The notes below the pieces were generated by a model. That model was given only the letters and a program-made list of their open reading frames with translations. It did not search any database and was not told where the DNA came from. Positions 2,277 to 25,789 of a DNA stretch of 64,000 nucleotides are shown one piece after another. The position numbers and the translations under genes were made by a program. The first letter of the stretch is position 1. Each line of letters starts with the position of its first letter. The stretch is from a virus, in IMG/VR virus record IMGVR_UViG_3300044644_000945, positions 1 through 64,000 of that record; one strand, 5' to 3'.

Positions 2277-5200
2277 ATGAGTTTATCATGTCCTATAGGT
2301 CCAGAGTTTGATGCATTAGTATCAGATTTAAAAAGTACTGCAGCTGCTAGAGCTGCTGTTGCTTTGAATAATGATGTCATACCTGATACTGCTACAGCAC
2401 AAGCACTTTTAGATGCTACACTTTTAGTAAATGAAGATGATAAAATTCGCAAATCTAATGATGCATTTACTTTAAAGAAGATGCAAGAAGAACAGATTAT
2501 GTTAGAAATTTTAAAATCTAATGTAAAAACTAAAGCACAAACTGCTGCTATTAAAGGACTTATTAATTCTAATAAAGAATTTCAAATTGCTTTAAATAAA
2601 AGTATAAAAGAAGGAATACCTGTAAACAAAAACTCTGTTACAAATCTTATAGGTTCTAACTTTGTTGGTGATGCATCTCAATTTGAAAAAACAAAAAGAT
2701 TTGGAATATTTGTACACAACTTTGCAGATAAAGTTATCAAGATAGCTAATGAAGATAATAGAAGAATTAGTGACATAGTTGGAGATTATAAATTCTTTGA
2801 AGATGAGTTAGCTACATTCTATAAAGAAAACTACTTTCAATTAGAAAATTTATCTGATAAAGAATTGTTTAACATGGTAAGAGATGTAGTTGAAAAAATA
2901 GCTGCATTAAAAGGTACAGAACATATTATTATACCAGAGCTTACTGTAATTGGAAAAGGTAGATCAGAAGATAGTTTTATCATAGGTAGAATTGACTTAC
3001 TTGCAATAGACACAAATGGTAAGTTTAAAGTTTATGATTTTAAAACTAAAAAAGTTAGTAATCTTATAGGTGACAAAGATCCTCTTATTGATGGTGTATT
3101 AGAATTAGACAATGTTACAAGAACATTGATGAGTATGACAAATAAAAACTTTCCTACTCTGACTAAAGCTGAAGACATTGTTGCTAAAAAAGCATCTATT
3201 AATATATTAAAAGCTAGTAATTATAAAAGAACTGTATATGACACATGGTCTTTACAGCTTATGTTATATGAAAACATTCTTAAACAATCTGGATTACAAA
3301 AAGGAGGAGACTCTTCTATTGTTGCTTTATTCTATGAGATGGATAAAACTAACACTAGAATGTTAGGAAGAGCTGTACACATGTTTGATACTGAAGATTA
3401 CTATGGTTATGTAGCAGGATTTCTTTCTATGGATAATGACAAGTTAGGTACACTACGTAATAAAGTTACTAAACTTAGAAATGCTGTTGAGTTTGAAATA
3501 CCTACTGGTGAAGAAATACAAGAGGAAGAAGAAAAGAAAGATGTAAAAATACTTGAGTTTTTACCTACTGCAGAACAGGATGAAAAAGTAATTCAAACAA
3601 TAAAAAACATGTTTGAATCACAAATACGTGATGTTCAGGTTAAACTACAGGATGCTAGAGATAAGAAAAAGAATCCAGCACTTATACGCGTGTTTGAAGA
3701 ACAAAAGAAAACACTAGAAGGGTTTTATGAAAACTATAATAAACCACATTCTATATCTGACAATCGTGTGATGCACAATTTTGCAGTAGTACATGAGATT
3801 ACCAGCAATGAAATAACTAAGTCTTTGACAGAAGCAACAGATGCTATTCTAAAATTTAGAAAATCTATATCTAATACACGTGAGTTTTTAAAACATTCTG
3901 AGGTAGTATCTCAAGTGTTTAAGAGAACAAAATCAATGTCTGAAGTTGTTACTTTATTAGATCAGGTAGTTAGAGATGCTATGCAAAATCCTGATAACAA
4001 ATTGGACCAAAATAGTGAGATTGTAAAAAAGATGAATGCTATAAAAACAAACATAGAAATTATAAACTCTATGTTTGCTGAAATAAGTTTAGAATCTACT
4101 GTTAAAATACTATCTTCATTAGGAGAAAAAAGTATGTCAAGAGTGCAAGAACTTTCTAAGGAACCTCTTGATATAGAAATCATGATGCTTGAAAGAAAGA
4201 TTCAAGATTTAAAAGATGGTAAAACTGCAGGATTTTTAAATAAGTTAAAACATGCAACATTAAGTATGTTAAGTAAAACATACAAAGATGGTTTCCAACA
4301 AAATCTTACACAACCTCAAAAAGATTTGATGACTCAAATTGAAGATTTAGAGTTTAAAATACTTACTCTTAGAGGAAGACAAAGTTTTAACTATGATGCA
4401 GACTCATTAAAAAAATATATAAATGCTGTTACAGATCCTACATCAGGATTATATATAGGAGCACAGGATATTATGAATCCAGATGGTGTTATGAGTGGTA
4501 TGATGTTAGATAATTTTATTGCATCTGCAGGTAACTCTGACATGATGATATCTGCATTTACAATGTTCTTAAAAAATGTAAAAAGCATTGCTGTAGAAAA
4601 TGTACAAGAAGATTTTGCTATCATGCAATTTGATAAAGTAAAAGGTGATCTGTTAAAAAAATACAGTTTACAACAGCTTAATGAAATGATGCATGAAGAT
4701 AGAACTACAAAAATCTTCAACTATGAAACAATGGAGGAGGAAGAAAAAACTGCAAGATATTTTGTAAAACCTACTTCTAATGAGTATGATAGAATCTATA
4801 AAGATTTCTCAAACCAGTATGCTAAAATTCAAAAAGAAATTAAGAGCTTAAAAGCTGCATTCTCTAGTAAAGAACCTGGTACACAGGAGTTTACAGATCT
4901 TGAAAAAGAATACTATGATAAGATAAATGAAAGAAATGTATTTACAGAAGCTAACATACAATGGCTTGTAGATAATACAAGTTTACCATACAAGGCAAAG
5001 TTTTATGAGTTCCAAAAGATGTTACCATTTGAAATCAGAAATGAACTTCAAAAGAAATATCATGAGATTGAAATTATAAAAGCAAGTCTTGATGTATCAT
5101 CAGAAGAGTTTTTAAGTGATGAAGATTTAGACAGATTAGAACAAATTGAGTATGAACTAAGACAGCTCAAACAGGAGGCTAAATTGCAAAATCCTAATTA

Positions 5201-19757: not shown

Positions 19758-20434
19758 ATAATCTTTTCTTTAGTTAATATTTCTCTAACTTTTTCTATAA
19801 GATCTTCTATAGTTCCATCATTGATAATTTCATAATCAAATTCTGCATCATCAAGAGCTGTCTCACTAGGATGTGTTCCAGTTGAGGTTCCAGGTCTCAC
19901 CACTCTAATAGTAATACCTTTTCTTTTTACAACAGCTTCCATTTCATTAGGAAATCTCATGTCTGTTATACACCAGTTAGGTAATATATCTGCTCCTTTT
20001 AAACGTGCAACAGGATTGTAATCAGCAAACAAAGCATTAACCCACACATTTGTATGTAAGCCATCACGCATTGCTTCAGTTCCTAATTTTTGTAGTAACT
20101 GTCTAACAGACATACAAACCATTACAGGTTCACCATCATCATAATACTCATCAGGATATGCATAACTCCACTCTTTACCTAGATCAGTTTTCTTAAACTC
20201 TTGGTCTTCAAAGTTCTTTACAGGAATACCTGTAAGTAATGATGCAATAGTTTTTAACTTTTCTGCAAACTTTTTAATTTTCCAATTACTAAAAGGTTCA
20301 GATCCATTGTCTAATTCTTCTAAACTAGAATATTGCATGTTTTTTGGTAATTTTTTATTTGCAACTAAGTATTGAATAATACTACCAATAGTATCTTTAC
20401 CAGATCCTATTTTTCCATTTATGCCTATAATCAT
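19754..20434 (-). CDS. Deoxynucleoside monophosphate kinase
   Basis: GKIGSGKDT P-loop; R.LLQ.LGTE..R; ITDMRFPNE; H.SE. Confidence 0.9.
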   Translation of the reverse strand: MIIGINGKIGSGKDTIGSIIQYLVANKKLPKNMQYSSLEELDNGSEPFSNWKIKKFAEKLKTIASLLTGIPVKNFEDQEFKKTDLGKEWSYAYPDEYYDDGEPVMVCMSVRQLLQKLGTEAMRDGLHTNVWVNALFADYNPVARLKGADILPNWCITDMRFPNEMEAVVKRKGITIRVVRPGTSTGTHPSETALDDAEFDYEIINDGTIEDLIEKVREILTKEKII

Positions 20435-20538
20435 TTTATTGTTTTGTTTTTAGTGTTACATGTTTTACATTTAAGTGTTTCAGGATCAAAGTTTTTCTCT
20501 GTCTTACACTTATCACAATATTTATATAATGCTATCAT
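20431..20538 (-). CDS. 35-aa zinc-ribbon peptide
   Basis: MIALYKYCDKC...CKTC; ATGA overlaps at both ends. Confidence 0.5.
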   Translation of the reverse strand: MIALYKYCDKCKTEKNFDPETLKCKTCNTKNKTIK

Positions 20539-20723: not shown

Positions 20724-22703
20724 TTAAAATAATTCTAACTGTTGTCCATAACTACCAGAAGATGGTAGCACTGTAGACAATCTTTCTATCTTGTGTATCT
20801 CATCATATATCTTATCAAGATAATATGCATCATTTACACCATACTCTTCCCATGATTTATACTCAGCTTTGTTAAAAATAGTTTGTTGAATCTTACTACT
20901 TTCTAGCTGAAGTTCTCTACCATCAGGATTACACTTAATAAGCTTTGTACCTCTATCTGACATAAAATATCTGATGAGTTTCTGCAGTCTGTTTTCTACA
21001 AAGACTCCTTCAACTACTCCACGCTCAACAAAATACCAATCACCTTTAAGTTTGGCTCCTGCACAATAATCAAAGATGTTTCTGTTATCTTGAAGAAATT
21101 GTTTAGGATCTATACCATCTATAAAATAAGCATAGAGTGCTTTAGGTACTATTAAGAAAGATTTGTTTTTGTGAAAAGGTAAATCTTTAAATTCAAATCT
21201 ACCTTTACATTTTACCTCACCAGTATCATACACTGCAATGTAGTTATTTACATCACCAATGATCATCTTGTCATATTTTACATATTCTAACTGCAGATTA
21301 GTTAAGGCTTCCCATTCTTTACAGATTTCAAAGAATAAATCTTCAAACTGTTCATCTAATAAAAATTCTAAACCATCTGTATTTTGCATAAGAGGTTGAG
21401 CACCAGGAATTCTGGTAGCTAACATCTCATACAACATAGCTAGTTGTAATTGACCATTAACTGTAATTCTAAAAGTGAGTTCAGGATCATATAAGAAAGA
21501 GTTTCTTTCTTTACTTAAACCATATGTAGAATTTAATATAATCTTAAACAAATAGTTCAGTGGATCTTTTTTGCTATACTTCTTTCTTTCTTCAAAGAAC
21601 CATTCATACAGCTCACAAAAATCCTTTTTAGGAAATTGTGCAGGACCCCACTGATTTCTAATTGCAAGATTTGGATAAAAAGATGTTACATCTGCAGATA
21701 AGATAATCTTACCATTACCAGATTTGTATATCCCAGGTTTAATACAACCATGCAAACCACCTAGACCAAAGTCTGTAGGTACACCTTTGTACATCATTCT
21801 ATATCTAGGTCCTTTTACTTTGTCATCTCTGTCATCATATAATTTAGTATCTACAACCAGATTCTTAAACCAGTTGTGTACACCTTTGAATTCAGGATTA
21901 TCAAAATTGACCATAGGTAAAATAATATCTCTAATGTTTACATAATCTCTGTAAGTGCGCATTGCTCTAATATCTTTTTTACTCTTACCTAATTTCTTAG
22001 ACAAGAAGTACAAAAAGATTTCTTTACTGATACGTGGCTCACTTGCAGAAAACAATGGAACATCATAAGTTTTGCTAAGTTCAGCTCTCAGATTAATCTG
22101 TGCTGCCATAGGTCTTTCACCCTTACCATTTTTATGTACAAAGATTTGCTTGGTAGAATTCACATCATTGACACAATATTTAATTATTGTATCTAATGTT
22201 GCATCATCCATTACAGGTTCAGCATGATGATGAGGCATTTCCTCAACATTGTACCAGTCCATGGAATACTGAATCCATTTAAGAGAACTTCTTTTAGCCA
22301 TGTTATCCCAGTGATTGAGTTTGAATATGTCAATACACTTGATACTTAGCTTAAATTCTGGATAGTCTAAAAACTCTCCTGCATTTGATTTTCTTATTAC
22401 TTCTGCAGCATACTGTGCAATAGAAGCAGTTATCTCATCTGAGTCTAATTCAAGAAGGTCTTTCTCAAAATGTAATATAAACTCAGTAATTTGAGAATCA
22501 AATGCAAGGTTGTTATATCCTAGATGCCAATCATCATGTTGCTTGTTATCTTTCAAGAAAGCTATAAACTTTTTCAAGTCATTTCTACCTCTATTGATTA
22601 CAAATGTATGTGTTTCATTATTGTCATATGCTATGAAACAACCTACAAAACAATTAACAATTGTTTCTAGATCCATAACCCAAAATCTTTTTTTTCTAGT
22701 CAT
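20724..22703 (-). CDS. polB: Family B DNA polymerase
   Basis: ExoI DLET, ExoII YNNLAFD, ExoIII YCVND, motif A DVTSFYP, motif B KIILNSTYG, motif C NTDG. Confidence 0.93.
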   Translation of the reverse strand: MTRKKRFWVMDLETIVNCFVGCFIAYDNNETHTFVINRGRNDLKKFIAFLKDNKQHDDWHLGYNNLAFDSQITEFILHFEKDLLELDSDEITASIAQYAAEVIRKSNAGEFLDYPEFKLSIKCIDIFKLNHWDNMAKRSSLKWIQYSMDWYNVEEMPHHHAEPVMDDATLDTIIKYCVNDVNSTKQIFVHKNGKGERPMAAQINLRAELSKTYDVPLFSASEPRISKEIFLYFLSKKLGKSKKDIRAMRTYRDYVNIRDIILPMVNFDNPEFKGVHNWFKNLVVDTKLYDDRDDKVKGPRYRMMYKGVPTDFGLGGLHGCIKPGIYKSGNGKIILSADVTSFYPNLAIRNQWGPAQFPKKDFCELYEWFFEERKKYSKKDPLNYLFKIILNSTYGLSKERNSFLYDPELTFRITVNGQLQLAMLYEMLATRIPGAQPLMQNTDGLEFLLDEQFEDLFFEICKEWEALTNLQLEYVKYDKMIIGDVNNYIAVYDTGEVKCKGRFEFKDLPFHKNKSFLIVPKALYAYFIDGIDPKQFLQDNRNIFDYCAGAKLKGDWYFVERGVVEGVFVENRLQKLIRYFMSDRGTKLIKCNPDGRELQLESSKIQQTIFNKAEYKSWEEYGVNDAYYLDKIYDEIHKIERLSTVLPSSGSYGQQLELF

Positions 22704-23253
22704 GTTTTTTTAAATAATTTATAGCAGAAATTAATATAGATTCTGATTCTTTTAAATATCCAATAGCTCTATTACAAGCATCGCATAATAATCCTCTTAC
22801 TATACCTGTAGAATGATTATGATCAACTGCTAAATTTCTTTTTAAATCATCAGTATGTGTTAAACAAATAGCACATTTGTTATTTTGATTTTCTAATAAT
22901 TCAATATATTTATCATATGTCATATCTAAGATTCCTGCTTGTTTCCAGGCAGCCTCACGACTTTTTTGTTGATAGTGAGTTAAATTTTTTATTCTGGTAT
23001 TTTTTGCATTTAATCTGTATTTTTCAGGATTTAATGTTCTTAATTCCTTTCTTCTTTGACTAATTGCTTCTTTACGTTTTTGATAACTGTTAACAGCATG
23101 CATTTTAGCTTTATCATTGTTATTAATTAGCCAATTTGCATGCATAATATCAGCACATGTTTTACAAACATGCTTTAAACCATCTTTTCTAGATAAATCT
23201 TTAGTAAAGTTATCTAAAGTTTTTAATTCTTTACACTTGTTACACTTTTTCAT
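22696..23253 (-). CDS. Endonuclease VII-type (HNH) probable homing endonuclease
   Basis: CAIC...LAVDHNH.TG.VRGLLC..CN..IG; N-terminal CxxC...CxxC. Confidence 0.85.
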   Translation of the reverse strand: MKKCNKCKELKTLDNFTKDLSRKDGLKHVCKTCADIMHANWLINNNDKAKMHAVNSYQKRKEAISQRRKELRTLNPEKYRLNAKNTRIKNLTHYQQKSREAAWKQAGILDMTYDKYIELLENQNNKCAICLTHTDDLKRNLAVDHNHSTGIVRGLLCDACNRAIGYLKESESILISAINYLKKHD

Positions 23254-23304
23254 ATCATTTATTGTTTATATAAACAATGTAATAAATAAAAATGTATTGT
23301 GCAA

Positions 23305-23364
23305 CTATAAATTATTAAAAATAATGGTTTCATAATCCATTATCCAGAACTTCTTATCTCTCAT
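23305..23364 (-). pseudogene. Orphan 5' stub of polB (MRDKKFWIMDYETIIFNNL*)
   Basis: Aligns to PolB N-terminus MTRKKRFWVMDLETIV including the ExoI DxE motif. Confidence 0.75.
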
Positions 23365-23365
23365 C

Positions 23366-23734
23366 TTATTTATCTAATACTTTTAATGAAGGATGTTTAC
23401 TATTATTTGCAAAATAATCTACAAATTCTCTGATATCTTCAGGTGTATCAATGTAATACTCATAGTAAGTATCCATGATTACACGCTGTTCAGCAAGAGG
23501 TGGTTTACCATCTTCAGTAGCTGGTACACCTTTCTTAATAATTACACTTCCTTTTTCATCAAGTCTAGGAAACATATGAGGCTTATCTTTACTCTCTTTA
23601 CTAACAATAGCTAATACTTTTGTTGTAGGATCATAGATTACCTCATTAAATGGACATTTTAAATCAATTGGTAACATTCTAAATGTTTTGTTACCATGCC
23701 AGTCTGTGTTATAGACAAACATACTTTGTTGCAT
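23366..23734 (-). CDS. Hypothetical replication-block protein
   Basis: 122-aa ORF in operon. Confidence 0.6.
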   Translation of the reverse strand: MQQSMFVYNTDWHGNKTFRMLPIDLKCPFNEVIYDPTTKVLAIVSKESKDKPHMFPRLDEKGSVIIKKGVPATEDGKPPLAEQRVIMDTYYEYYIDTPEDIREFVDYFANNSKHPSLKVLDK

Positions 23735-23746
23735 ACTTTTTGGTTT

Positions 23747-24298
23747 TTATATTAAATTAATTTCTGGATGAATTAAGTAACATGTTTCCTTTTCAGGATC
23801 ATATTTATCACATAATTCTCCAACTTTTATTAGTTCTTTTACATCTATTTCTAATATCTCAGCATACTTATCAAAATAAGCTTCAGGAAAGACATAAGAC
23901 TCCACAAAAACCCATTCTGGTGTATGTATACCATAATAGTCAGTTAATAGCTGTTTAGAGCGTGTAGACATCTTTGAATATTTACCATTTATAAAATGAT
24001 CATAATCATCTTTAAAAATGTTAAAATCAAAAACATATAGTACACTGTCTTTGTCAATTGGTAAACAATAATCTAACATGTAGTGTGTTACCAAATGTTC
24101 TCTTTCAAATGTTTTCCATTCTTCAGAATCATCTCTCTTATATACACAAACAAGCTTTCTAGAATCTTTATCAAACACACCTTCCCACATAACATATGTT
24201 TGTATAGGTTTGTGCTTATTTCTCTTCTTAAATCCTAGTAAAGGATATAGAAAAGTAAAAGACTTTTGAAAGTATTTGCGATACAAATCATTCATCAT
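23747..24298 (-). CDS. Hypothetical replication-block protein
   Basis: 183-aa ORF in operon. Confidence 0.6.
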   Translation of the reverse strand: MMNDLYRKYFQKSFTFLYPLLGFKKRNKHKPIQTYVMWEGVFDKDSRKLVCVYKRDDSEEWKTFEREHLVTHYMLDYCLPIDKDSVLYVFDFNIFKDDYDHFINGKYSKMSTRSKQLLTDYYGIHTPEWVFVESYVFPEAYFDKYAEILEIDVKELIKVGELCDKYDPEKETCYLIHPEINLI

Positions 24299-25335
24299 AT
24301 TACAAGTTCATTGTGAATTAAAAATGGGTATGGTAAATCAAAATTTCTATTCTCAAAATGATAGATTGCTTCATGAAGTTTAGAGTTTGTATCTCTAATC
24401 CACATTTTTAGAGTATCAGCAGATATTTTGATTGCTCCAACTTGCATGTATTGATCTATAACAATGAATCTAAATTCAAAATCATAGTCAGCATATTTTG
24501 GACTATCCAAATATACACTTTTTACTAATATATAATACATTGAAGCTTGAATCCAGTATCTATAATACTCAATTGTGTCTTGAAAAGAATTAATATCTTT
24601 ACTAGTTTTCTTTAAGTCATTGACTCTGATTACTTTATTAGTATGATCAAACACAAGATTGTCAATAAAACCTCTTAAACCAAATGGTAATTTCTCTGGA
24701 AAAGCAGCAAGCTCAACCTCATTAAACATCTCAACTTCATCAGTAATTTTATCTTTGGTGTAACCCATAATCTTCATTACATGGTCAGAAGCTTTAATAA
24801 TTTCTACTACATCTTTAGCATTGTCATACATTGCATGATCAACCTTAGTTTTACCTTCACAGTTTTGCATATATTCCCAATAACTTCTATGGTCATCAGT
24901 AAGTATTTTATCAATACGCTGTTGATCAGTCTTTAAAGTCTGATACAAGTTCATGTCTACTAAAATATCTAATATAGCATGTTCAAAATGCTCTAGTAGA
25001 TATCTAGGATCACCCATTGCTTTAAGTTCTGAGTAATGAACAAAAAGTCTTTCTAGTACTTCTTTTGGATTTGCACTAGGAACACTAGTTGCCATTAGCA
25101 CAAACTCTTTATCAAAGTCATCAGGATTTAAGAATAAGCAGTGTATCAGCTTACCTTCAATCATGTTCTTGTCAGATGTGTCATCTTTTTGCCCTAATAT
25201 ATAGTGCAAATAAAATAGTTTAGGACTGTACAATAACTTATTCAAACCTGAATAAGACATCATAAATGTTTTGTCAAAAAATTCTTCTTGTTTTTGCAGC
25301 ATTTCTGCTTGCGTTGGCATTTTAAATACTTTCAT
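24295..25335 (-). CDS. PD-(D/E)xK exonuclease (RecB/ExoVIII-like)
   Basis: SYSGL, G.LIH, RGFIDNL...NDLKKT, Y.Y.IQA.MY. Confidence 0.8.
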   Translation of the reverse strand: MKVFKMPTQAEMLQKQEEFFDKTFMMSYSGLNKLLYSPKLFYLHYILGQKDDTSDKNMIEGKLIHCLFLNPDDFDKEFVLMATSVPSANPKEVLERLFVHYSELKAMGDPRYLLEHFEHAILDILVDMNLYQTLKTDQQRIDKILTDDHRSYWEYMQNCEGKTKVDHAMYDNAKDVVEIIKASDHVMKIMGYTKDKITDEVEMFNEVELAAFPEKLPFGLRGFIDNLVFDHTNKVIRVNDLKKTSKDINSFQDTIEYYRYWIQASMYYILVKSVYLDSPKYADYDFEFRFIVIDQYMQVGAIKISADTLKMWIRDTNSKLHEAIYHFENRNFDLPYPFLIHNELVI

Positions 25336-25789
25336 TTTTACAATTTTGCATATCTCTTAGAAAATATCTTCCTAATATATTACCATTATAACTATTGCTG
25401 GTCAGCACATCAGCTTTAATTTGATGTGCCAACTCACAATAGTTGAGGTATTTTTTAGTACAACATAATTCTAAAATCTCTCTTTTATACATTAATTTTC
25501 CTTCTGTTTTAATCTCTGCAGTAAGTTCTTTACAACTACCATAGTAATCTAACCAGTTGGACTCTTTAGAAACTCTTTTGATTTTCTTTCTAGTACCTGT
25601 TTCTAACTTTTCTTTTTTTGTAACTGCAGTCTTTTTGGTAAACTGCAAACTTTTTTTGCCAATGTAAAATTTACCTGTTTTAATGTGGGTAATTCTGTAT
25701 ACAAAACCTATAAGGTTCTGATAATCAGGCAGATCTTCAATTTGTGTAATTACTTTGTTCTTACATGAAGGTAGTATCCAATTGCTCAT
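25322..25789 (-). CDS. GIY-YIG endonuclease
   Basis: GFVYRIT...GKFYIGKK...YYGS...YN. Confidence 0.8.
   Translation of the reverse strand: MSNWILPSCKNKVITQIEDLPDYQNLIGFVYRITHIKTGKFYIGKKSLQFTKKTAVTKKEKLETGTRKKIKRVSKESNWLDYYGSCKELTAEIKTEGKLMYKREILELCCTKKYLNYCELAHQIKADVLTSNSYNGNILGRYFLRDMQNCKNESI

Follow-up and report, generated by a model that had tools for sequence, protein, structure and literature searches.

Here we describe a locus at which an endonuclease gene sits between two versions of the beginning of a phage DNA polymerase gene (polB): the resident start, left behind as a short stub, and a diverged start from which the polymerase is read. The locus lies in a stretch of 64,000 nucleotides (nt), hereafter the window, of the uncultured IMG/VR record IMGVR_UViG_3300044644_000945; the full record measures 88 kb, is ~70% complete, and the sequencing runs containing this stretch are mostly lake and freshwater metagenomes. 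An upstream gene of 122 amino acids (aa), the stub, the nuclease gene and polB are all encoded on the minus strand (Table 1).

The stub consists of codons 1-15 of the resident polB followed by four codons of the inserted cassette and a TAG, and its junction with the upstream gene is still the native TAAGATG. This is no chance likeness, as searching upstream for a copy of the N-terminus encoded by the downstream gene yielded z = 9 relative to shuffles. In the window, the polB ATG overlaps the nuclease stop by 8 nt. An initial annotation, made from the letters of the stretch, had already described a 19-codon stub after the upstream gene, an AT-rich spacer and an endonuclease VII gene overlapping the polB start, and both the open reading frames (ORFs) and Pfam agree with it. 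It had also placed the insertion among the early codons of polB, which is correct, but directly after the D-x-E-T codons, which is not: the homology breaks after E-T-I-V, at codon 15.

Table 1. Features of the stub-nuclease-polB locus, in window coordinates.
Feature	Coordinates	Strand	Remarks
Upstream 122-aa gene	23366..23734	-	ORF call; TAA at 23368-23366; syntenic in nearly all 80 loci
Stub ORF, 19 codons	23305..23364	-	Reads MRDKKFWIMDYETIIFNNL*; ATG 1 base past upstream gene stop
AT-rich spacer, 51 nt	23254..23304	-	~20% G+C; between stub and nuclease
Endonuclease_7 gene, 185 aa	22696..23253	-	Homing-endonuclease candidate
Family-B DNA polymerase gene, 659 aa	20724..22703	-	ORF call; starts MTRKKRFWVMDLETIV; chimeric
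Replacement polB 5' end	22618..22703	-	Brought by cassette; ~29 codons
Mobile block, 706 nt	22618..23323	-	Spacer, nuclease and replacement polB codons 1 to ~29; delimited by comparison
20-nt inverted repeat	left arm 23324-23305, right arm 22705-22724	-	18/20 complementary; brackets spacer and nuclease exactly

The assignment of the target to the family-B polymerases rests on a fold search, since the sequence searches were weak. No match to polB was found in Pfam, nor by phmmer against PDB, and a profile of 14 sequences reached in PDB a weak match to E. coli Pol II in its motif-B region (E 0.26). PHROG family 1252, 'DNA polymerase', was matched at E 5e-128. An AlphaFold model built on the 14-sequence alignment has a mean predicted local distance difference test (pLDDT) score of 82.7, and the top Foldseek matches to it are all family-B polymerases (5mdn, E 1.9e-14, probability 1.0). 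These fold matches, together with the ExoI residues D11 and E13, invariant in the 14 relatives, uphold the polB label of the initial annotation; the motifs DVTSFYPN, KIILNSTYG and NTDG are also readable in the ORF. A DNA search of isolated phages gave no close relative of the window, and the polB protein reaches only ~34% identity there.

As for the nuclease, residues 110-183 of its 185 match the Pfam family Endonuclease_7 (PF02945, E 1.2e-22), its sole Pfam match. In PHROG it matches 'endonuclease VII' families, and its N-terminal residues 1-106 (the first ~100 residues) match zinc-ribbon/Lar-like families. The N-terminal part carries CxxC...CxxC zinc-ribbon-like motifs and the C-terminal part the Endo VII catalytic motif (CxxC, DHNH, R, CxxC-N), of which C127/C130, D144, H145, H147, R153, C157/C160 and N161 are invariant (alignment A2; three lineages). 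The Endo VII catalytic motif is defined by this same set, which the homing endonuclease F-CphI has been shown to require (PMC6083498). Both by these residues and by a C-terminal catalytic domain placed behind a separate N-terminal part, the nuclease conforms to the F-CphI ('DHHRN') type; its putative DNA-binding part is N-terminal, a layout unlike that of T4 Endo VII.

The window's genome record holds a single copy of this gene, with no second one. The ORF is intact in all four of the lineages described below, and the ratio of nonsynonymous to synonymous substitution rates (dN/dS) between the window and locus L010 is 0.24, the ratios of more distant pairs being unreliable because dS is near saturation. 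Judged from these sequences, the nuclease is intact and under purifying selection. Full-length relatives at ~33-36% identity are common optional genes of T7-like and other phages. A scan of metagenome contigs with the nuclease alignment brought up, among the matches listed, only sequences of at most 36% identity and no new cassette lineage.

A scan of IMG/VR with the polymerase gathered 80 loci at 51-97% identity (numbered with the prefix L), nearly all of which keep the order of a 183-aa gene, the 122-aa gene (itself lacking any Pfam or PHROG match) and polB. The nuclease is present in only ~10 of the 80. In the remaining ~70, polB begins in most cases -4 to +1 nt from the stop of the 122-aa gene, with MRDKKFW[IV]MDYETIV or close variants. 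The initial annotation had predicted precisely this, that nuclease-free relatives would begin polB with MRDKKFW right behind the upstream gene, as is seen in ~70 loci. It had also set beforehand what would speak against it, namely nuclease-free relatives with an MTRKKRFW start; the MTRKKRFWVMDLETIV version was found in none of the ~70 nuclease-free loci, and the reading stands. The nearest nuclease-free locus, L001, encodes an identical 122-aa protein and a polB 97% identical at the protein level, which starts MRDKKFWIMDYETIVNCF. Stub bases 23364-23324 match this L001 start at 41/41 nt, so that the stub can be recognized as the resident polB start.

The limits of the insertion were defined by comparison with one locus of each kind. 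The window and L001 share 98.2% identity in the left 1-kb flank and 99.0% in the right one, and positions 23323-22618 have no counterpart in L001 save 44 diverged positions of the polB start. Against the nuclease-bearing L002, the same flanks are only 82% (left) and 90% (right) identical, while the 706-nt block is identical at 705 of its 706 positions, the one difference, at 23209, being synonymous. Since the block is near-identical and the flanks are diverged, it must have moved very recently between genomes differing by 10-18%. The head of polB, taken as the 72 nt counted from the Trp codon, has 100% identity with L002 and 68% with L001 (at most 76% with any nuclease-free locus); the body beyond it is 99% identical to L001 and 89% to L002. 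By this comparison, polB of the window is a chimera whose first ~29 codons come from the cassette and whose remainder is L001-like. The suggestion of the initial annotation that the element carries its own diverged polB 5' end is borne out by this head, foreign to the body that follows it. Because three stub polymorphisms agree with L001 and not with L002, the left crossover is confined to 23338-23324; the right one falls within a shared octamer, 22617-22610. Co-conversion would thus extend over ~15 nt on the left side, with a fixed polB head of ~29 codons (~90 nt) on the other.

Both states of the locus are found together in nature. In DNA run X5, from a lake metagenome, a 766-nt contig covering 22588-23353 spans both junctions with zero differences, and a second contig joins 22617 to 23324 through 42 other letters, that is, the empty allele with the same boundaries. 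Filled and empty alleles therefore coexist in one lake metagenome with exactly the same boundaries. The existence of near-identical phages with and without the insert indicates, at the level of sequence, that the cassette moves between genomes. Given that the record is an uncultured, incomplete contig, an assembly chimera or a duplication artefact might be suspected; such an origin has next to no likelihood, as the architecture recurs in at least nine other contigs from different metagenomes and the independent Logan contigs of run X5 cross both junctions without differences.

Cassettes of this kind fall into four lineages according to the identity of their nuclease with that of the window: the window with L002-L005 (100%), L010/L011 (85%), L007/L008 (50%) and L116 (45%), the latter found with the nuclease alignment. 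The order of stub, nuclease and polB is the same in all four. In every lineage the stub copies the local polB start and ends after E-T-I-V (after E-T-L in L116), within 3 nt of one point, and the overlap between the polB ATG and the nuclease stop amounts to 4 or 8 nt. Sequence comparison thus demonstrates the anatomy of the cassette, a presence/absence polymorphism with exact boundaries, lateral transfer, and the occupation of one site by four old lineages.

The replacement starts differ from the resident ones in a particular way. Among 43 unique nuclease-free alleles, the stretch TGG-nnn-ATG-GAy-TAT-GAA-AC is at least 95% conserved at most positions. Every replacement start is altered at such positions (conserved in at least 95%), at the Met or Tyr codon by the ExoI Asp and Glu. 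In the window, codon 12 (22670-22668) has changed from TAT to CTA, Tyr to Leu; in L010 and L007, ATG has become TAC, Met to Tyr; in L116, Tyr is replaced by Phe. The catalytic Asp and Glu are retained in all of them, and none of these changes occurs in the nuclease-free L001, L012, L023, L035, L072 and L076. The pattern of stub and replacement start agrees with what would be expected if the nuclease recognized ~30 base pairs (bp) around codons 8-17. It would likewise suit the suggestion of the initial annotation that the diverged 5' end may immunize the gene against cleavage.

Altogether, we consider it probable, at roughly 85%, that the cassette is a splicing-free homing element working by gene-end replacement. 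In the mobile unit, the Endo VII-motif endonuclease gene would be followed immediately by a diverged version of codons 1 to ~29 of the target polB. During co-infection, the nuclease would cut a nuclease-free polB near codons 9-16, within the coding sequence of the ExoI motif, and the break would be repaired from the nuclease-bearing genome, with the upstream gene and the stub as left homology and polB beyond codon ~30 as right homology. The recipient would be left with its own first 15 codons stranded as the stub, the nuclease gene, and a chimeric yet complete polB, read from the ATG that the cassette supplies over the nuclease stop. Two features would protect the filled allele from being cut again: of the presumed site, the stub keeps the left half but lacks the right one, and the replacement start has a substitution at the Met or Tyr codon that flanks the catalytic Asp and Glu residues. 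In this scheme the cleavage, its position and the immunity are inferred.

Several points weigh against this reading and must be considered. Endonuclease_7 is also the family of Holliday-junction resolvases. Among nuclease-free loci, L074 and L067 alone share the Met-to-Tyr change, which shows that the change is not exclusive to cassettes; L074 (IMGVR_UViG_3300031952_000005, 3995-4060) equals the L010 replacement allele over the ExoI codons. The alleles of these two loci may be donors, survivors of nuclease loss that would still be resistant, or unrelated variants. Furthermore, Met-to-Tyr is common to L010 and L007, so that no more than three independent substitutions can be counted over the four lineages. 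In addition, the tight crossovers could in principle reflect ordinary recombination followed by selection.

Alternatively, the cassette could be a fixed relic: a single illegitimate recombination would have placed the nuclease and a foreign polB start, which then spread by ordinary homologous recombination with the nuclease as a passive passenger, perhaps a resolvase. Such a history would accord with the membership of the catalytic domain in the Endo VII resolvase family by Pfam, and with the mosaic exchange common in these genomes, for instance the gene replacement at 19760-20530 relative to L001. We regard it as unlikely. An essential resolvase would not be expected in only ~10 of 80 related loci, and the layout of a C-terminal catalytic domain with an N-terminal zinc ribbon is that of free-standing genes resembling homing endonucleases. 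Moreover, 705/706 positions of the block agree although its backgrounds are only 82-90% identical, the crossovers fall within 15 and 8 nt, and four diverged nucleases hold one and the same site.

A different possibility would make of the stub a working exon, joined to polB by an intron, an intein, trans-splicing or ribosomal bypass. The stub does keep the native coupled start, and in two lineages the 20-nt inverted repeat brackets the spacer and the nuclease. Nevertheless, polB begins at an ATG of its own with a full N-terminus, collinear with that of every relative, and a product joined to the stub would contain the ExoI motif twice. An Rfam scan at E up to 10, covering 22300-23800, gave no group I or group II intron but only chance-level matches, and no intein is possible because the nuclease is out of frame with polB and lies behind stops. 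The inverted repeat itself is absent from L007. Joining is therefore highly improbable, and the splicing-free reading advanced by the initial annotation is sustained on both the intron and the intein side.

The inverted repeat begins at the insertion point; its left arm ends with the stub TAG and its right arm 1 nt before the polB ATG. In shuffles, the 18/20 complementarity of the window was reached in 0.25% of trials and the 17/20 of L010 in 0.75%. As a long-range RNA stem it was discarded, its duplex energy being unremarkable (-13.8, where random pairs average -13.5) and the repeat missing from L007.

The spacer also contains a perfect 16-nt palindrome, TTGTTTATATAAACAA (23262-23277), identical in the L010 cassette, which forms the core of a hairpin enclosing the nuclease start. 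The fold z-scores of this hairpin are -2.9 in the window, -2.5 in L010, -2.6 in L116 and -0.4 in L007, which faintly hint at a nuclease-start hairpin in three of the four lineages. It recalls the translational restraint of T4 homing endonucleases (PMC2988022). A sigma-70 promoter scan gave 9 promoter-like sites against 9.0 expected, and a terminator scan found none. The RNA libraries X15 and X16 contain short contigs over parts of the nuclease and of the upstream gene, none of them across a junction.

From a functional perspective, the polB start lies within the nuclease stop in each of the four lineages, and ribosomes would have to complete the nuclease ORF before polB could be translated. 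In the window and L010, the stub, which would still be translated, ends inside one 20-nt arm whose partner is the 20 nt immediately preceding the polB ATG, and its translation could keep the original upstream coupling. It is a rather doubtful idea that the cassette would be wired into polB expression, beyond being merely tolerated, with stub translation perhaps also unmasking the polB start in these two lineages. If true, decay of the nuclease would be penalized, a form of addiction, and repeated invasions would moreover drive amino-acid change beside the proofreading active site. Between the upstream gene and the stub of L116 (~2350-2400) there is a G+C-rich terminator-like hairpin (GGGAGAC...GTCTCCC, then a T run), from which it follows that stub and polB would not be coupled to the upstream gene in that lineage.

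In the textbook view, homing endonucleases enter essential genes only under the cover of an intron or an intein, and otherwise stay between genes. The locus would be a clean natural case of a third route in bacteriophage, that in which the start of a gene is replaced. The principle has precedents outside phages, contrary to the lack of precedent implied by the initial annotation: both WHO elements (PMC7282813) and fungal mORFs (PMC3630166) mirror the design. WHO elements of Torulaspora and Lachancea yeasts home into FBA1, and a gene-end-replacement model has been proposed and partly demonstrated for them (Coughlan et al. 2020, PMC7282813). Like the phage cassette, they combine an endonuclease gene with a replacement end of the target, which confers resistance in WHO (PMC7282813). 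In both, the displaced resident end serves as homology arm (a non-expressed fragment in WHO), the target becomes chimeric with discordant ends, and no splicing is involved. WHO elements, however, act at the 3' end of a nuclear gene and in meiosis, whereas the phage cassette occupies the 5' end of a phage gene; their nuclease is intein-like, of the LAGLIDADG-zinc-finger type, instead of bearing an Endo VII motif; and they build relic clusters, while the phage cassette presents a single stub, with the new start of the target overlapping the nuclease stop. No protein homology of the nuclease to the WHO/HO/VDE family was found, Pfam giving Endonuclease_7 only. On sequence grounds, the cassette resembles a WHO element in its working and is not a member of the WHO family.

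Fungal mitochondrial mORFs make gene hybrids in Allomyces atp6 and in Glomus atp6, atp9, cox2 and nad3 (PMC3630166). There too, an endonuclease ORF lies in a conserved gene together with a foreign gene end, and the native end is left as a duplicate past the ORF. The mORFs differ from the phage cassette in replacing C-terminal ends, in encoding nucleases of the LAGLIDADG or GIY-YIG type, in their frequent in-frame fusion to the host gene and in residing in organelle genomes.

Among phages, the nearest relative in logic is, by analogy, the T4 MobA cassette of gene 39 and gene 60 (bioRxiv 10.1101/2022.08.31.505936; PMC2988022), likewise an HNH-type cassette inside an essential replication-related gene, which also provides the downstream part with a new start and introduces a change protecting against self-cutting. 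With MobA, in contrast, the split gene yields two working subunits that have novel extensions, and ribosomes must bypass 50 nt. The locus described here does not follow that type: its upstream piece is 15 codons long and duplicated in the replacement start, and polB remains one uninterrupted ORF of 659 aa. The Seg and Mob endonucleases of T-even phages, also free-standing genes, spread by intronless homing, in which double-strand breaks are repaired during mixed infection and flanking markers are co-converted, and owe their immunity to target polymorphism (PMC2988022). Nevertheless, they are intergenic and cut hundreds to thousands of bp away, whereas the phage cassette lies inside an ORF with tracts of ~15 and 90 nt. 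F-CphI of cyanophage S-PM2 (PMC6083498), likened here by its motif residues, has the same C-terminal Endo VII motif (Cys pairs, D, H, H, R, N) and is also a free-standing phage gene near its target, but its neighbour is psbA and it works together with an intron. Neither literature searches nor the review of T4 mobile elements (PMC2988022) yielded a published phage example in which a gene start is duplicated and replaced.

The end-replacement principle known from WHO elements and mORFs would thus be extended to phages, to 5' ends and to Endo VII-motif nucleases, with comparative evidence that is unusually complete for a phage case. Furthermore, the locus offers a directly testable candidate target, 30-40 bp around the ExoI codons, together with three natural candidate escape substitutions. 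It also bears on how selfish nucleases may shape the proofreading motif of replicative polymerases, and on the search for further nucleases with sequence specificity. Stubs and chimeric starts of this sort account, in annotation, for 'orphan' mini-ORFs and discordant gene ends.

Beyond these lineages, the surroundings of 55 more distant Endo VII-like genes in IMG/VR were inspected, and the stub design was found only upstream of this polB family. Many of the 55 overlap the start of a conserved downstream gene without any stub. Many Endo VII-like homologues with 30-35% identity occur in L120, L128, L131, L134, L145 and L159-L163, and in L124, L125 and L141-L154; their stop overlaps or adjoins the start of either a 418-aa gene (MAELNF..LLKWQ) or a 377-384-aa gene (MTAHALLSAS..). 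Placing the stop on the start of the next gene looks like a recurrent habit of the nuclease family. In L177, an Endo VII-like gene (2501-2911, 27% identical) overlaps the start, at 2904, of a different polymerase-like gene beginning MSRTLVFDIETD, with no stub; this layout could represent the free-standing ancestral arrangement.

Two further observations concern the neighbourhood of the locus. At ~19760-20530 of the window, set against 5132-5332 of L001, there is a gene replacement between otherwise ~99% identical genomes: the window has a 35-aa ORF and a 226-aa P-loop kinase-like gene, and L001 a 66-aa gene instead. In L002, the 49-aa gene beside polB is absent and the kinase-like gene is present. 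Finally, three genes upstream of the cassette, at 25322-25789 on the minus strand, the window carries a second homing-endonuclease-like gene, of the SegE-type GIY-YIG kind (PF19835, E 6e-27); L001, though devoid of the Endo VII cassette, has this one too, with 99-100% identity across the gene.

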